NCBI GenBank assembly: GCA_963662465.1
Contig: OY759599.1
Coordinates: 5,856,001-5,920,000 of the forward strand
DNA length: 64,000 bases
Source: Desulfatiglandales bacterium
GTDB lineage: Bacteria; Desulfobacterota; DSM-4660; Desulfatiglandales; Desulfatiglandaceae
Direction of reading: 5' to 3'
The number at the start of each line of letters is the position of its first letter. Position 1 is the stretch's first letter. Position numbers: made by a program. Positions 30,001 through 36,000 of the stretch are shown here, piece by piece.

Positions 30001-33000
30001 ATACGCATATTATACAGCCCGCATACACCATACCATTTATCTTTTTCGATAATAATTTCATGTCGGCTTTCAACCGGCAAATCATAATGAGCCTCAGAGA
30101 AAAAGCCGGAAATTAGCAATTCTCATTTTGGAATTACGATCTCCTCATTCTGGTTCACACGCTCTATGTTGGAATCCGCCTCTGGTCTATCTGTGTCTAA
30201 GCCATGAATATACCCAATTTAAACCAGTGTTTTTCGAGTTTTCCGCAGGACGCGGAGCGTCCCAAAACTATTCCCACATTAGAACGTATGAACGAGAGCG
30301 AAAGCCAAGTCCTAATGAGAATTCCTAATTAAATATTTCGCAGAAAATAAAAACATTGACCTTGTGTTTTTCCATCAAATAATTTACAAAATACAGATTT
30401 CAGGGGGAGATTGGTTCGATTTTGTCGGATAATATACGGAAACGGATATTTGATGACAAAAAAAACCGTATAATCACTGGTTGTGCTTGCGACACGATGT
30501 CGCATAGTTTGAGTGTATTCATGTAGTTACATGTAGTACCCGGTATGTTCCTACCGGACCCTACGCAGGCATGCTGCCGTTGCGCTGATGACGGGGTGTG
30601 AAGCCCTGCGGACAACGTACCGAATCGGGTTCAAATGGCGACAGGAGAACCCCTCCGGGAATCCTCCCCGGTTAAGGGCTAGGGTCGGATGATATGGTGA
30701 AGGTATCTGAATGTCTTTAAGCGTCGATTACAAGCGAAGGACCTACGAGGATTAATAGATCTTATGCCGCTGCCCAGTGTCAGCGGATGTGGTCAGGTTG
30801 CAGGTCTGTCAACTGCCTGCACGGAACTGTTATACCACCGGCGTAGAGGGCGCACCTAAGTCATCCATTGGATCAACTATGTGGAACGTGGAAACCCGGT
30901 CCCGTCGCCCCTTTTGGGGGCAGGCTAACCGCAAGGCATGCTGTTGGCGGGCCGGAGTAGGAGGCTGAAAAAAGCGAATGCCGGGCCGTAATGGTCCGGA
31001 TACCGGGTGAAACATTCCCGGCTCCGTAAGGAGGCAGACGTTCAGCGCGGTGCCCGATCACGTGAACACCGGAGGAATCAGATGAAAGCGGGGAAAGCAG
31101 CCAGTGAAACGGGCGAATGACGGCCCTTGAGGCTGGTGCGCCCCGTGCGCCTTTGGCTATTCTGACAGCTGGCCTGTAACGTGAAGTGGATGCAAATCTG
31201 CGGGAATCCCCACCAGGGAAACCTTTTCGGGGGCTTGAGCCACGTGAGGTGAAAGTCTCATGCGTGGTTCTGAGGGTAATAGCGGCATAATACACACCTC
31301 CGTACGTTATTGAAAATTAAAGACTTGTTGTTTTGAGTTTCTTGAAAGCGGGCTCTTTGGAAGCCCGGAATGAGCTGCCTTTTTTATCACTTCAGATTCA
31401 AGGTCCTTTTTTGAAATGATCCATGGAGCACCGGAACATACTCGCTTGGCGGGTAGAATCTCATGTTGTATAAGTCTCCAAACTTTGGTGCTGCCAATAC
31501 CCAGCCTTTCGCTTGCTTCAGCTACCGTATATTCTTCTCGTCGCTGCCTCTCTCCTTCATGATATACAGGGATATTATGCCTATTTCGAAATGAACGCAA
31601 CCTTACCGGATTCCAGGTATATCCCTTTGTAGTCTTTGTACCCACACGGTTGAGAAAGGCCACGATGTGTTTATCAGGCATAATTCTAGCCAAATCGGAT
31701 ATTATCTTTTTTGTATCAACATCGGTTTTCAATGGGTAACTGGAAGACTTATTCTTCAGTACCTCCAATTCCGTATGCTCACCCCCTTCCCAGTGAATGA
31801 TTAATTTGATCTTTTGCTCTTCCAAATAAACAACGATCTCTTTGATAACCGTCCGGATTATACGCTTCTTTAAATCCAAAGAGCAACACGGATCATTCCA
31901 TACACGAGGTAAATCTTGTGACAGATCTCTGATCTCGGTCTCTTCCTCAGGGGAAAGCGAAGGGGTGTTCGACCCCATAGCGGTAATCTCATTCTCCAAT
32001 CTTGCTACCTTAACAAGAGCGTCATTCCAATCCTTCTCCAATGTAGATGCTACCAAACGATTATCAGGGTCCACTGCATTGTATTGACGTTTTGCCCGTA
32101 AAGCTTCATAACGCGCTTGTTCCAACTCCAGTTCCCGTTGCCGTTTCACTGAATCCGATTCATGGTTGATTTTCTTTATCGCCTCTAAAGAAGCTTCTAA
32201 TCCTATCGGTGATAATACTTTCAAAAGAAAATCCGTAACAGCCCGGTCAACACGGAATCCACCAAATGATATACACGCCTTTCCTGTCTCGTTACCTCGT
32301 TTGCGGCTACACTCATAACGTTTATGAGTTCCATTACGGCCTTGGTATCGTACAATTAACTTTCTACCGCAATGACCGCATCTTAACAAACCTCCAAGCA
32401 ATGCCTTTCCTCCGCGAACAGCTCCTCTCACCACCGGCCTTTTCTTATTTGTATTTTGAGTTAGTATCTCCATGTTATACTGGTACTCTTCCCATGTGAT
32501 GTAACCTTCATGGTGATCCAATATTAAAACGTCCCAATCCTTTTGTTCCTTACGAATACCCTTCCTCAGTCGCTTGCGCCCATTTTCAAAAGTTACCTCT
32601 GTTTTAGTCCGGCCATAGACGTAGGCGCCGGCGTAAATTGGGTTGTTCACTATATGCGACAAGGTATGAGCAGACGGTAGTTTCCACTCTATCCTACGTT
32701 CCCCTTTACCGCTGGAAACAACAGCAATCTCAATCTGTTCATCTAAAAACCAATGATACACCCGACGAAGAGTACCATATTCCTTGAATTTCGTGAATAC
32801 CAAATCAATGACTTCTTGAATTCGTTTGTCAGGATTCTTTTTCAGCTTATTATCCCTAGTCTTTATATAGGCTGCCGGTACAGTAAGATATAATTCTCCC
32901 CGCTTCGCTTTTTGTTGTATTGCCGCCTGAGAACGCTCCTTTAATAGGCTCAATTCCATTGCACTCATTTCTCCCTTTAAGCCCAGGAGCAAACGATCAT

Positions 33001-36000
33001 TTGACACGTTTAGGTCATAAACAGCTCCTTGATCTACAAGAACCGTTTTTTTAAGTGCACAGATCTCAAGCAACGTATGCCACTCTCGACCGTTGCGGGC
33101 CAACCTCGATGATTCAATCGAGAAAATACCCCCTATTCTTCCTTCACACACAGATGAAAGAAGATTCTGGAATCCTTTTCTGTCAACGCATCCCGATGCA
33201 GTTATTCCCAAATCACTATCTATCATCCATATGTTTTTCTCGTTCCATCCTAATTCTTTTGCCCTTTCTACCAAGCCATATTGTAAAAGTTGGCTTTCAC
33301 GATGCTGTAGAACTTGGCCCGGTGTTGACTGACGGATATATATACATGCTTCCCGACTAATATGTTCAGCATTGATTTTATTGCTCATGCTCATTTCCAC
33401 CTTTCTTTTCTCGAAATGTCAACCGAAAATTGACCTCTTGCGACAACCGAATTTTGCCCCCACATGAGTAATTGTAACCTGCGACGCGGTCATAGAAGGC
33501 TCCGGTGGCTCCTGCCGAAATATCCATTAAAAGAGCGACCATAACCGCACCTTAGTCAGCTTCCGACCAGATAATCATCTGGTAAGTCGAGAAAACCCTT
33601 TTTCGTCGCTAATTCGAGTTCAATCAAATACCCTATCTCGCCTTTCATTTTGATCTGTGAAACCATCCACTTCGGTAACCGAATCGTGACGGGGATACGC
33701 CTCAGATGTTCAGGACTCCTTTTTCGACCAGCGCCTTTTCGACTCCCACCTCTCATTTTCATCGCTCCTTTTCACCTTCAAATTCGTCCAATATTTTTGA
33801 ATACCGCGTACGTTTTTCAATTAAACACCTATTTCTATCGGAAAATAAGCTATTTATGATTTATAGTTACGATTTTTCTGAGTCGGATTAAGCTGCTTGC
33901 TTCAACAACTCCAGTCTCTTGACTGCTTCCAATATCAGACCGCGATTTTACGTTAGTGAAACTACTTCTCTTTTCTATTTCTGTTACCCTCAGAATTTTG
34001 CCAGAAACCTGACAGAAGCTCTGCAAGGAAATCAATCAATCTATTTCGTGTTTCTATTGGAATTTCGATCGGTGATGGTAAATAATCCCAAAGCCGAAGT
34101 TGATGATATTTTTGTTTCGTCATCTTTCCTCCTTGTTTTCGAATTGACTTCATCAGGAGGAAACGGTATTTTTCTATTCACTATTAAGCAATATAAATTC
34201 TTAAGCGCCCTGATTTCGATAGCGGGTTTTGAGCCGAGGGATATCTTTTCATACTTTGGATTGGTCATCCACGCAGGTATCAATTCATGGCGACCATCAG
34301 GTTTCTTTGTTACAAAACAAGTTTCTCCACGATGGTTTCTGGTACCTACCACATAAATTTCTTCACCGGTTCTTGGGTGAAATGGGTAATATACCCAAGT
34401 TATAAACTGGTTTTGATGGGCATTATATAGTGGTTCTGAGGGGGCTCGGGGATGGCAACATCCCCCGGCTACCCGGCCGTCGCAATATGAAGGAAGGTGG
34501 TAAAGCGAAATGTGAAAATTAGTGGATTACGAACCAAAGAGGCACGTTTAGCCTTGTTTCAACTACAAGGTCGAACGACAGTCTCATCAGCGCGGGCAAT
34601 GGTCCTACCCAATGTTTTGTGTTTATTTGGAGTTGTGTGAGTGTCCATAAATTTGGATGAAGCTATTTTGGTTCACTTAACCAAGAAAAAGGAGATAATC
34701 GATGCCTGAATTGATCTACGAATCTGTTGTTTCAATCGCCAAAGCAATTCGCAATAAGAAAATCTCGTCTTTTGAGGTAGTAAGGGAATTCCCAAGAAAT
34801 AAACTACCCAACTCCAGATTCAATAAGTACATCCCATTTGGGCAGTGTGTCGGAACGTTTAATTCTGTTTTCGTAAGGTTTCATTTCTTTTTTTGTAAGC
34901 CGGATTCCCTTCTTATATGCCTTTTCCACCAACGTGACAATGGGCTTTATCCCTTTCCATGTCATCGTAGATGCCCAATTGACTGCTTTTGATATTGAAT
35001 CCAATATTTCTCCGTTCCAATGTCCCTCCAATATTCCCCAACATCTTTCAACCGGATTGTACTTACTATGATAGGGAGGATAATAAACCAGGCGGATTCG
35101 CAAACCTGTTTTGTCACTGAATTCGGTCATTCTGCGAATGAATTGAGTCCGACCGCTTGCTGAATTCGGACCATTGTCAAGATTGATAACCAACTCGTTT
35201 ATATGAAGATAGGTAATTCTGTTTTTTTCCCACCACATCTCTAAACAGTCAACGATGAAATCACTTGTTTCAAAAGATGTGCCGAAAAAAATAGAAAGCA
35301 TTCCGCTCAAAACGTCAAGAATACCGTACGGAACCAATTTCATTTCGGGATTCATATCATGGTCTTCAGCTTTCTTCGCTTCCCGATCCCGTGACTTTCC
35401 GTTTCTTGAGAACTCGCCTATATTCACTTTTGCCTTGGCATCAATAGAAATCCGATGAGAGTTGGGATTCTCATCAGAGTCACGGTTTGCCTTCCATACA
35501 TTTTCAAATATTTCATCGACCTGTTTTATCTTTTTCGCAGGTTTGGATTTCAGGACTCGTTTCAGGTTGTATCCCATGCGGTTCAACATGTTGATCAGAG
35601 TGTTGTTAGAGGGAAGATCCTCACCGTCGTATCCTTTCTCATCAATCAGTGCCTTTTTGAGAGCTTTTCCTGTAATTCTTGTATATGTGATAGAGCTTTT
35701 CATGGCAGGGTCCGCCTGAGTTTGAGGTTCTGCAAGGGATATTATGTCTGCTTTAATACCGGGAATCGTGTCTTCTGTTTTCTTTTTTCCCCGTCCCTCA
35801 AAATTATCCATGCATCTGATCCCGCTTTCGGCTTCTTTAAGGCCTTTTGTTACACACTCTCTCCCCCATCCCATCTCCCGTTCAGCTTTGTATGCACTCC
35901 CGTTGAAATATTTCCTGGTAATGTCGGCCTGATATGCTCTTCTTTTGTAACCAGTCAGTCGTCTGCATGCATCTTTTATCAGATTTTTTGTTTCTCCGTC

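Follow-up and report, generated by a model that had tools for sequence, protein, structure and literature searches.

A large serine recombinase cassette between domains V and VI of ORF-less group II introns, a probable integrative element of a Desulfatiglandales bacterium

Analysis of a 64,000-nucleotide stretch of the genome of a Desulfatiglandales bacterium (contig OY759599.1, positions 5,856,001 to 5,920,000; the window) revealed a gene cassette that separates domain V from domain VI in an ORF-less group II intron. This location raises the question of whether the cassette was carried to its present sites by the intron or whether it moves on its own and uses the ribozyme-coding sequence as its landing site. 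The second answer is preferred here: the cassette is likely (probability of about 0.8) to be a small transposon, an autonomous integrative element whose movement is driven by the large serine recombinase (LSR) that it encodes.

The host intron was recognized by two Rfam matches above the gathering threshold, group-II-D1D4-7 (RF02012; 30539-30679, 78.1 bits) and Intron_gpII (RF00029; 31235-31305, 45.8 bits), both on the + strand and thus opposite to the recombinase. No ORF for an intron-encoded reverse transcriptase was found within the 785-nt 5' part. The intron starts with TTGCGAC, which departs from GUGYG; most copies begin with TTGCG and one partial copy begins with GTGCG. The bulged branch-point A of domain VI, which was read from the sequence and not from a model, is located 6 nt before the point where the copies diverge, past ...CTACCCGGC. 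The same genome contains empty sister introns. In the one at 3333981-3334806, domains V and VI are contiguous, as an earlier note on this DNA had described, and the core is intact; a second empty intron is located at 3353252-3354082. Introns of this genome are also arranged in tandem, one behind another.

The cassette comprises the genes of the LSR and of a small DUF5372-like protein, all oriented antisense to the host intron (Table 1). The LSR is 697 aa long when translated from a GTG; the 693 aa reported in the earlier note hold for a start at the third ATG. The 43-aa ORF also listed there was not found to be conserved; conservation was instead seen for the small DUF5372-like ORF of 123 to 137 aa. 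At the left end of the cassette, directly past the recombinase stop codon, a ribosome binding site (RBS) and an ATG are present, and this motif is kept in 30 related loci. The repeat TGGTTCTGAGGG flanks the cassette on both sides, and its left copy reaches from the 3' end of domain V across the V/VI linker into the first G's of domain VI. It is 12 nt long in copies A to E, and the previously reported length of 11 nt applies to copy F, in which the left repeat begins with C. This flanking core fits shared identity around a crossover, as would be expected for large serine recombinases, which join attP to attB by a 2-bp staggered exchange that leaves no target duplication. The accessory segment is missing from related cassettes, and its basic ORF has many copies elsewhere in the genome (73 to 82% identical). 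One of these copies lies beside IS21 istB (window 36261-36470). Apart from the accessory segment, gene calls and Pfam searches revealed no cargo or mob genes in the cassette.

Table 1. Features of the host intron and the cassette (window positions) and the cassette copies of the genome (contig positions of the unique part of the cassette, unless marked as window)
Feature	Coordinates	Strand	Basis or remark
Host intron domains I-V, ORF-less, ~785 nt	30487-31270	+	Rfam, alignment with sister copies
Domain V hairpin	31237-31270	+	sequence
Left core repeat TGGTTCTGAGGG (attL core)	31265-31276	no strand	identical 12-mer again at 34431-34442
Mobile cassette proper	31277-34430	-	3,154 bp; 7 copies, ends identical
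RBS and ATG of split small gene	31286-31301	-	RBS GGAGG 31297-31301; ATG 31286-31288
Large serine recombinase, 697 aa	31307-33400	-	Pfam domains, invariant residues
Accessory segment, ~590 bp	33405-33997	-	gap when aligned to cassettes L020, L014, and L021
Basic ORF, 68 aa, in accessory segment	33556-33762	-	without Pfam family
DUF5372-like small gene body	34041-34430	-	intact in 24 related loci
Right core repeat TGGTTCTGAGGG (attR core)	34431-34442	no strand	sequence reading
Domain VI hairpin	34440-34477	+	bulged A at 34471; intron 3' end 34477
Copy A	3315471-3321485		2,861-bp insert interrupts cassette
Copy B	3323086-3326240		
Copy C	window 31277-34430		window copy
Copy D	6375478-6378632	-	
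Copy E	6748386-6751540	-	
Copy F	4984149-4987303		
Copy G	6823248-6826402	-	

Pfam analysis of the LSR revealed a Resolvase catalytic domain (E 7e-19, residues 19-169) containing Ser25, which we take to be the nucleophilic serine, followed by a Recombinase domain (DBD1; E 2.6e-12), a zinc ribbon (Zn_ribbon_recom, DBD2; E 2.9e-8), and a C-terminal excisionase-like HTH_17 domain. Comparison of 18 homologues revealed invariant residues in the catalytic domain (Y21, R23, Q24, S25, and T26) and in the zinc ribbon (C341, C344, C364, and C376). The best NCBIfam match was XisF (E 6.9e-33). Its 114 bits are far below the 375-bit cut-off, and the assignment of the LSR as an XisF orthologue was rejected.

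A BLAST search of window positions 30400-34600 against the whole 8.16-Mb contig, combined with exact end motifs, revealed seven copies of the cassette, which upheld its reported location between domains V and VI of ORF-less group II introns. The copies are 98.9 to 99.8% identical, with pairwise mismatches of 0.19 to 1.14% over ~3,154 nt, and they occupy at least three different intron settings (type 1, F-type, and, beside copy G, a type-3 domain VI). In copies A to E, the repeated unit extends across the ~785-nt 5' part of the intron. Copy F is preceded by a different domain V, as had been noticed before, and is followed by a domain VI of type-1 style, which differs from that of the empty F-type intron at 3306434-3307399. 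Copy G had been regarded as truncated and devoid of intron context; its right flank is the domain VI of a third intron type, with a shared core of only 7 nt, and on the left it adjoins the interior of a gene for an IS91-family transposase.

Such a distribution might also result from a single integration, after which the 4-kb composite intron multiplied by retrohoming with a reverse transcriptase provided in trans and copies F and G arose via template switching or recombination. The whole unit of 3,994 to 3,999 bp is common to four loci, and the unexpected domain VI of copy F would suit this route. All five filled type-1 introns have the derived substitution ACGATGTCGC, where the empty ones carry ACGAAGTCGC or ACGGAGTCGC, and the filled introns are closer to one another than to the empty copies. 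However, among copies A to E, intron divergence exceeded cassette divergence by a factor of 2.8 to 15.6 in 8 of the 10 pairs (Fisher p <= 0.006). Copy D has a 5' part and a domain VI that both belong to another intron sub-lineage, but its cassette is separated from that of copy E by differences at 7 of 3,155 sites (0.22%, compared to 3.47% for the intron). The pairs A-B and B-C showed similar intron and cassette divergence (p = 0.21 and 0.45). Retrohoming of the composite intron, with which the earlier note had accounted for four of six copies, may therefore apply to these two pairs. Altogether, 45 of 784 intron sites and 42 of 3,155 cassette sites are variable. The density of variable cassette sites is the same in coding (31/2,094) and noncoding (13/1,060) sequence, and purifying selection therefore does not explain the lower cassette divergence. 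The cassettes are mosaics of two haplotypes, which indicates that gene conversion contributes to their similarity.

Two further results bear on the route of spread. The first is site occupancy: six of the eight domain V sites with the 11-nt core were filled, compared to 0 of 41 sites without it. The second is the distance of 3.2 kb between domains V and VI in filled introns. No bridging pairing of the cassette ends was detected at any of the eight loci analyzed (z of +0.8 to +2.3), which makes a splicing-dependent route unlikely, and the insertion would part the two domains enough to disable splicing. The third domain VI type and short core at copy G are also difficult to reconcile with retrohoming, as are the near-identical cassettes in unrelated introns of three structural classes and other organisms described below. 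A single integration followed by spread of the composite intron is considered improbable.

LSRs with 70 to 85% identity were found on contigs of four other assemblies and on 35 metagenome contigs. Among the 24 loci with a usable left flank (at least 55 nt), 19 have a domain V adjoining the LSR stop codon on the opposite strand. The hairpin sequences are of many different kinds, and domain V is backed by Rfam in 15 loci. At the other end, 20 of 23 usable right flanks contain a hairpin that resembles domain VI and has a bulged nucleotide. Flanks other than intron domains were found on the left in 4 of 24 loci and on the right in 3 of 23. The host introns span three Rfam D1-D4 classes (7, 2, and 6). 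In the loci L034 and L035, the LSR genes are 97.9% identical and the flanks are only 57% and 46% identical; in environmental DNA, cassettes with 97.9 to 100% identity occur in differing flanks. A single clade (support 100/99) unites the 17 LSRs found in domain V/VI settings. The core common to both ends of the related cassettes is only 4 to 10 nt long, mostly with the shared motif TG A/T GG; as read from the sequences, its variable third position is the same in attL and attR in only 11 of 18 loci. The short core of the relatives also indicates that the long repeat of the present copies reflects local similarity of attP and attB. It removes the objection, made in the earlier note, that an 11-nt repeat is unusual for a serine recombinase.

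The proposal of the earlier note that the cassette is a site-specific element with the V/VI junction as its attachment site therefore gains support from several sides: the three intron backgrounds, the excess divergence of the introns, the site occupancy, the unrelated flanks elsewhere, and a gene rebuilt across the joined ends. In the integrated state, the body of the small gene has no start codon of its own. Joining the cassette ends in silico yields a small gene of 137 aa, and in 15 of 19 loci the joined ends place a Shine-Dalgarno sequence and an ATG in frame with an ORF of 114 to 137 aa, for which the chance expectation is ~1/3. An in-frame joint of this kind would imply a circular form. 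The match of the small protein to DUF5372 (PF17342) is weak (20.7 bits against a cut-off of 25, E 4e-4), and a match at E <= 0.01 was obtained for 7 of 18 family members. In the Atlas, 28 of the 30 nearest clusters share the family set including DUF5372, which is present on 12 to 51% of the members in the three Atlas clusters listed.

A structural model of the LSR in complex with the small protein gave an ipSAE of 0.64 (median of three runs), which is a model confidence and not a measurement; the best of three controls scored 0.00. Of 157 solved complexes, 116 reach this mark, as do 2 of 215 mismatched pairs. At least 58% of the contacts were common to the runs, and the partner pLDDT was at least 59. 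The modelled contacts on the LSR comprise residues 337-347, 395-408, and 480-544, and the small protein is thus predicted to bind where the zinc-ribbon domain meets the coiled coil. Recombination directionality factors switch serine integrases from integration to excision. Known factors bind the junction of DBD2 and the coiled coil, according to an excerpt of PMC12286644. Any role assigned to the small protein is tentative, as production from the circle only would be odd for an excision factor.

The following cycle is proposed for the autonomous element. The attB site would consist of the DNA for the 3' strand of domain V, the V/VI linker (2 to 4 nt), and the first part of domain VI, a stretch that is the most conserved part of these ribozymes. 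The recombinase would excise the element as a circle, and end joining would place the RBS and ATG of the left end before the DUF5372-like gene of the right end. Since the start signals and the gene would be joined only in the circle, only the free form would yield the small protein, which probably shifts the balance of the enzyme between integration and excision. The attP site of the circle would then recombine with an empty V/VI junction, and the crossover dinucleotide would lie within the short core common to both sites (for most relatives TG A/T GG, and 11 to 12 nt here). The anatomy, the precise and recurrent junctions, the independence of the cassette from intron lineage, and the open frame across the joined ends are observed, whereas the formation of a circle, the place of the crossover dinucleotide, the function of the small protein, and the loss of splicing are inferred.

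No circular junction and no restored empty site assignable to a filled locus was seen in the assembled contigs, in which a direct joint of domains V and VI may derive from empty sister introns, and no attP arrangement occurs among the 59 related loci. This result would be expected if the elements were immobile relics, their similarity kept by gene conversion and their link to introns left by old events that intron and integron traffic carried on. The mosaic haplotypes, the insertion-broken copy, the copy with a rearranged flank, and the 590-bp insertion that parts the small gene from the LSR and is absent from relatives are in line with decay. On the other hand, the recombinase frame is intact in six of the seven genomic copies, no catalytic or zinc-binding residue varies among the 18 homologues, 24 related loci retain an intact small ORF, and environmental cassettes are near-identical in differing flanks. 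A relic is therefore regarded as very improbable.

Several known systems resemble the element in part. In the clostridial transposons Tn4451/Tn4453 (TnpX) and Tn5397 (TndX), an LSR is the sole mobility enzyme, and these small elements leave as a nonreplicating circle that is integrated via exchange at an overlap of 2 bp, as stated in part of PMC5704250. The joint of the Tn4451 circle creates a signal that drives recombinase expression (Lyras and Rood 2000, as cited in an excerpt of PMC13023037). The cassette resembles these elements in its small size and its LSR, and its joint-dependent gene may be analogous to the Tn4451 joint. However, Tn4451 has many target sites, which contain a GA dinucleotide, and it carries genes for resistance and mobilization (excerpt of PMC5704250), whereas the cassette has a narrow target, the V/VI junction in most loci, and no cargo except the accessory segment. 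Its joint would complete the ORF of a second protein and not, as far as shown, a promoter. Serine-recombinase integrative mobilizable elements (IMEs) insert in conserved genes of mobile elements, e.g., traG of Tn5252-related integrative conjugative elements (same excerpt). They share with the cassette an attachment site at a conserved position within another mobile element, but their targets are protein-coding genes of conjugative elements and not the DNA for a catalytic hairpin and a branch-site helix of a ribozyme. An IStron is a chimera of a group I intron and an insertion sequence, according to part of PMC4227781. Like IStrons and twintrons, the present arrangement nests a mobile element with a self-splicing intron. 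The ribozyme of an IStron, however, belongs to the element and renders the insertion harmless, and the insert of a twintron is itself an intron, whereas the cassette has no ribozyme features, is antisense, and splits the core of the host ribozyme.

The skin element in sigK interrupts a gene that is restored upon excision (excerpt of PMC5025042). By analogy to skin of Bacillus or the XisF-dependent fdxN element of cyanobacteria, the cassette might be a domesticated switch, kept by the host or the intron, whose regulated excision restores the ribozyme and turns on splicing or intron mobility. All three share an LSR and precise insertion in a conserved sequence. XisF is the best, if subthreshold, match of the LSR, precise excision would give the intact V/VI junction seen in empty copies, and a gene that is whole only in the excised element could serve as a reporter of the state. 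The fdxN and skin elements are, however, single-copy and developmentally regulated, whereas the cassette is present in multiple near-identical copies in many unrelated introns and organisms and also at non-intron sites. This is the pattern of a selfish element and not of a single regulated locus. In addition, the host introns are located in intergenic or mobile DNA and not in a gene whose expression needs switching. The switch is accordingly given the least credence of the explanations considered.

A literature search found no description of such an element, in agreement with the novelty assumed in the earlier note. With an autonomous element as the preferred reading, independent movement and the V/VI linker as the attachment site are supported by the sequence comparisons, and the cassette would be one genetic parasite specialized to live within another. 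More tentatively, and at slightly less than even odds, this branch of LSRs, each with an end-split DUF5372-like gene, may represent hyperparasites of other mobile elements. Each lineage would recognize the most conserved motif of its host. In the present case this would be the V/VI ribozyme core of ORF-less group II introns; in other lineages it would be the GIPT motif found in intron reverse transcriptases, the IS21 istB codons for Walker A (on hundreds of rhizobial plasmids), or motifs of IS91-family transposases. Insertion would reversibly disable the host element, and the circle-only gene would sense the free state. If this is true, the present enzyme would be the first DNA recombinase known to have a ribozyme-coding sequence as its natural landing site.

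Analysis of the window revealed an ORF-less group II intron whose domains V and VI are separated by inserted DNA that does not resemble the intron and carries its genes on the opposite strand (see the table). The inserted DNA encodes a large serine recombinase (LSR), for which a phmmer search returned no solved structure at an E value of 1e-5 or lower. Profile searches assigned the 68-aa basic ORF to no Pfam or NCBIfam family. This ORF lies in a 590-bp accessory segment of this genome's cassette, and many copies with 73 to 82% identity were found genome-wide; one of these, in the window, lies a short way downstream of the IS21 gene istB. 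An ISAzo13-type transposase gene lies 330 nt downstream of the 3' end of the window intron.

Features of the cassette, its host intron, and the neighboring mobile-element genes in the window
Feature	Window position	Strand	Remark
Group II intron 5' part	30487-31270	+	ORF-less type-1 host
group-II-D1D4-7	30539-30679	+	Rfam 78 bits, above gathering
Intron_gpII	31235-31305	+	Rfam 45.8 bits, above gathering
Domain V hairpin	31237-31270	+	From sequence
Left core 12-mer TGGTTCTGAGGG	31265-31276		Directly after domain V
Inserted DNA, unlike intron	31277-34430		3,154 bp, genes on -
Recombinase, 697 aa	31307-33400	-	Pfam Resolvase, Recombinase, Zn_ribbon_recom, C-terminal HTH_17
Accessory segment	33405-33997		590 bp, encodes the 68-aa ORF
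68-aa basic ORF	33556-33762	-	No family
DUF5372-like ORF	34041-34430	-	Cassette right end; weak match, E 4e-4, below gathering score
Right core, identical 12-mer TGGTTCTGAGGG	34431-34442		Runs into domain VI
Domain VI hairpin	Bulged A at 34471; intron 3' end 34477	+	From sequence
ISAzo13-type DDE transposase, 403 aa	34804-36015	-	DDE_Tnp_ISAZ013, E 3.6e-82
Copy of the 68-aa ORF	36261-36470		Just downstream of istB
IS21 istB	36557-37276
IS21 istA-like gene	37273-38655

Seven copies of the cassette (A to G; C is the window copy) with identical ends were located on the 8,161,625-base contig. The earlier observation of a recombinase cassette flanked by domain V and domain VI stands, with small corrections. 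Over approximately 3,154 nt, the seven copies differ pairwise by 0.19 to 1.14%, and the differences form a mosaic of two haplotypes. Copies A to E occupy one common intron family (type 1). In copy A, the recombinase gene is interrupted by a 2,861-bp insert, of which the genome holds two more near-identical copies; the inserted element (contig 3315893-3318742, 2,858 bp) encodes proteins of 620 and 230 aa without a Pfam family. Copy F occupies an intron other than type 1 (F-type), with 84% identity in the first 230 nt of the 5' part and a different domain V sequence; the left core of this copy is CGGTTCTGAGGG. The right flank of copy G is domain VI of a third intron type, and copy G has only GGTTCTG in common with that site. 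At its left end, copy G is joined to internal sequence of a transposase gene of the IS91 family (Y2_Tnp, Zn_Tnp_IS91), a sign of rearrangement. Eight tandem copies with a period of 1,609 bp and 85% identity to that transposase gene were observed at contig 4413001-4424866.

Two empty type-1 introns (contig 3333981-3334806 and 3353252-3354082) have contiguous domains V and VI and an intact core. In a further type-1 intron (contig 289006-289766, minus strand), domain V ends after its 5' strand and is followed directly by a domain VI like that of F-type introns; the deletion lies at the exact position of cassette insertion elsewhere. At contig 3329591-3334806, three group II introns are arranged head to tail with no gap between one 3' end and the next start, the domain V/VI matches ending at contig 3331756 and 3333981. 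The ORF-less type-1 introns, at window 30480-30493 and in the sister copies, start with TTGCGAC, compared with the usual GTGCGAC; a GTGCG start was seen only in a partial type-1 copy at contig 450969. Most type-1 introns are preceded by ...GAGCTTGTCGTT and three variable bases.

The attachment site was delimited by within-locus comparison of attL and attR. In relatives, the common core comprises only 4 to 10 nt and is centered on the linker that follows domain V, with the sequence ...GGTTC TG A/T GG.... The longer repeat of 11 to 12 nt in this genome is due to a chance resemblance between the right arm of the cassette and the domain V 3' strand. The earlier note had regarded an 11-nt repeat as unusual for a serine recombinase; since the long repeat is a local resemblance and the core in relatives is short, this objection is removed. 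Site occupancy follows the core sequence: among 49 domain V matches in the genome, the 11-nt core is present in 8, of which 6 are occupied, while none of the 41 other sites is occupied (3 with GGTTCTG alone, 38 with neither motif). Assignment of the crossover dinucleotide from the variable core position gave agreement between attL and attR in 11 of 18 loci, no better than chance, and no attP arrangement was found in 59 related loci. Joints were searched on the assembled contigs of four sequencing runs. Joints skipping 3,165 to 3,168 nt (31263 to 34430 and similar) were detected in runs X1 and X4 and in the RNA library X13; these were rejected as evidence of excision because empty sister introns or relatives can yield them. 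No back-joint of a circle was present among the joints in these contigs. RNA-library contigs of run X5 covered 29 of 30 bins, for which DNA carry-over is a possible source.

Comparison of divergence between the host introns and their cassettes was performed for copies A to E. The intron parts differ by 1.4 to 4.0% and the cassettes by 0.2 to 1.1%, with 45 variable sites in 784 intron columns versus 42 in 3,155 cassette columns. Divergence of the intron exceeds that of the cassette by a factor of 2.8 to 15.6 in 8 of the 10 pairs (Fisher p 0.0056 to 9e-14); in pairs A-B and B-C, the two diverge alike (p = 0.21 and 0.45). Purifying selection does not explain the low cassette divergence because variable sites are equally dense outside (13/1,060) and inside (31/2,094) the recombinase gene. 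In copy D, the 5' part is divergent and domain VI is a variant also seen in another type-1 intron; yet the cassette has 7 differences from that of E and 6 from that of F. Alongside independent integration, some copies have likely spread as a composite with the intron, with exchange of flanks between copies. This is suggested by a common derived base in the filled introns, which group more closely together than with the empty introns, by gene conversion visible among the cassettes, and by the domain VI of copy F, which is of type-1 style and unlike that of an empty intron of the copy F host type at contig 3306434-3307399.

The strongest part of the case for independent integration is the comparison with other organisms. 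LSRs with 70 to 85% identity were found on short contigs of four other assemblies (an Olavius-associated Delta 1, a Deltaproteobacteria MAG, a Thermodesulfobacteriota MAG, and one labeled Dojkabacteria) and on 35 of the 39 metagenome loci returned. In same-genus relatives, only a fragment with 79% identity (genome G005) and LSRs with 29 to 36% identity were detected. Because the cassette ends are conserved, the related loci were anchored on them. The left end was found in 30 loci, 24 of which had at least 55 nt of flank; a domain V hairpin forms the flank in 19 of these (17 by hairpin search; L015 and L051 by Rfam, with 46.3 bits and with 37.7 bits, E 7e-4). The exceptions are L037, which is partial, and L047 and L025/L026/L027 (one sequence), which are not domain V. 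In the Rfam scan, which covered the related loci apart from the large L026 and L027, domain V was placed directly after the recombinase stop codon, on the opposite strand, in 15 loci. The right end was usable in 23 loci, and in 20 of them a stable hairpin resembling domain VI follows, its 3' strand carrying a single bulged nucleotide according to the folds read by eye; the exceptions are L020, L032 (inverted domain V), and L038 (groES-like coding sequence).

The host introns of these cassettes are diverse. Their domain V sequences include GAGCCG...CGGTTC, GAACCG...CGGGTC or CGGATC, GAGCGG...CCGTTC, and others, and the D1-D4 parts belong to Rfam classes 7 (window, L023, L029), 2 (L021), and 6 (L035, L042, L025). 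In all six relatives in which it is visible, the D1-D4 match lies 242 to 625 nt from the recombinase stop codon, which leaves no space for a reverse transcriptase gene. The host introns of relatives would thus appear to be ORF-less too, within the reach of the fetched flanks, outside which longer introns would fall. The recombinase genes of L034 and L035 are 97.9% identical, while their flanks are only 57% and 46% identical, and L033, L034, and L036 demonstrate the same pattern of similar recombinases and divergent flanks. The 17 recombinases found in domain V/VI settings group as a single clade in a phylogenetic tree (support 100/99). The near-identical recombinases in unlike flanks and the variety of host introns argue that the cassette moves independently of the intron and lands at one structural position in very different introns. 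The proposal of the earlier note that the domain V/VI junction serves as the attachment site is thus supported, both by the varied host introns and by the lower divergence of the cassette. L021 and L022 have identical recombinase genes and a common domain V but different domain VI sequences; together with the inverted domain V of L032 and the groES-like flank of L038, this mismatch points to rearrangements mediated by cassette copies or to occasional use of other sites.

Examination of the cassette ends revealed a gene split across them. Immediately beyond the recombinase stop codon, the conserved left end carries a minus-strand GGAGG separated by 8 nt from an ATG (window 31301-31286). When the right end, core, and left end were joined in silico, this ATG was in frame with the DUF5372-like ORF, which has no start codon of its own when integrated. 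The joined ORF encodes 137 aa here and 114 to 137 aa in the 15 loci, of 19 having both ends, where it is in frame; of the other four, two are ambiguous in register at a run of T, and the remaining two are flanked by parts of different introns. In 24 loci the ORF body is intact, and 23 of its positions are invariant. In the predicted fold, residues 1 to 50 form a confident small beta-barrel (pLDDT 90 to 94), followed by one helix and a disordered tail. A Foldseek search against the PDB revealed nothing at an E value of 0.001 or lower, only weak SH3/Tudor-like matches. A model of the LSR in complex with the small protein gave an ipSAE of 0.64 (median of three runs), compared with 0.00 for the best control. 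Of 157 solved complexes, 116 attained this ipSAE, as did 2 of 215 mismatched pairs; the calibration is only rough for this model, which used its own alignments. The runs share at least 58% of contacts, and the pLDDT of the partner is at least 59. The modeled contacts on the LSR (337-347, 395-408, and 480-544) map to the zinc-ribbon domain and to each foot of the putative coiled coil, and according to PMC12286644, directionality factors of other serine integrases bind the same region. We read the small protein as a putative recombinase partner that would be made from the free circular form.

The cassette holds domains V and VI of the host intron 3.2 kb apart. A stem between the cassette ends that might hold the two domains together was rejected, because pairing of the ends in intron-sense RNA was no better than that of shuffled sequence in 8 of 8 loci. 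The type-1 introns start with TTGCG, not GTGCG. We infer that cassette insertion would disable splicing. If so, the cassette probably switches its host intron off, and perhaps on again by excision.

Distant LSR relatives share this end architecture, with the ATG complement just a few bases in from the left end and an upstream DUF5372-like ORF, and they occupy other conserved mobile-element motifs. In two loci of the same-genus genome G007 (L002:1486-3597 and L011:1423-2689; LSRs 29 to 36% identical), the cassette splits an intron reverse transcriptase gene directly after ...GIPT; an upstream D1-D4 core is present, and beyond the cassette the reverse transcriptase resumes with FEDKVLQ..., its RVT_1 match starting at profile position 7. 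LSR matches with 47 to 49% identity occur on 487 plasmid records, most of them from rhizobia. Two of these loci were examined, on plasmids of Sinorhizobium meliloti (L063:2998-5067) and Bradyrhizobium (L064:2998-5067); in both, istB of IS21 is split by the cassette within the codons for the Walker A motif (GPSG|TGKTH and GPP|GGGKTH), again with the DUF5372-like ORF upstream. For three LSRs with 33 to 34% identity (L057, L017, and L056), the flanks after the recombinase stop codon (2836-3006 in L057) hold reading frames that, judged by eye, look like IS91-family transposases (...HIPNKNEQMVRYYG or ...CPCGG...ILTHLG); in L057 and L017 the flank resembles such a transposase ending in ...VRYYG. A search for the target of L052 (LSR 50% identical) did not identify one. 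The same architecture at reverse transcriptase, IstB, and IS91 transposase motifs suggests a general strategy: the stretch that an abundant mobile element conserves most would be used as a landing pad that is safe, multicopy, and horizontally traveling.

The cassette is an integrative element or transposon driven by a serine recombinase, which is a known kind. Its novelty is the attachment site in DNA encoding the catalytic core of a ribozyme, inside another mobile element, and the gene wired across its own ends. In the literature searched, which left most subscription journals outside, no report of a serine recombinase element inserted in a group II intron or in istB was found, nor any mention of DUF5372. 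In that literature, papers on both serine recombinases and group II introns appear to deal mostly with the reverse case, an intron inside a recombinase-driven Clostridioides transposon, or with organelle genomes. The cassettes offer a natural series of closely related serine integrases whose attachment sites are short, well defined, and varied by nature, together with a candidate partner protein whose expression is predicted to be wired to the excised state; both bear on site choice and direction of serine integrases. If the reading is true, it would account for some of the numerous "broken" group II introns of bacteria, and the ecology of selfish DNA would gain a further layer, in which a DNA-level parasite recognizes the conserved catalytic core of an RNA-level parasite.
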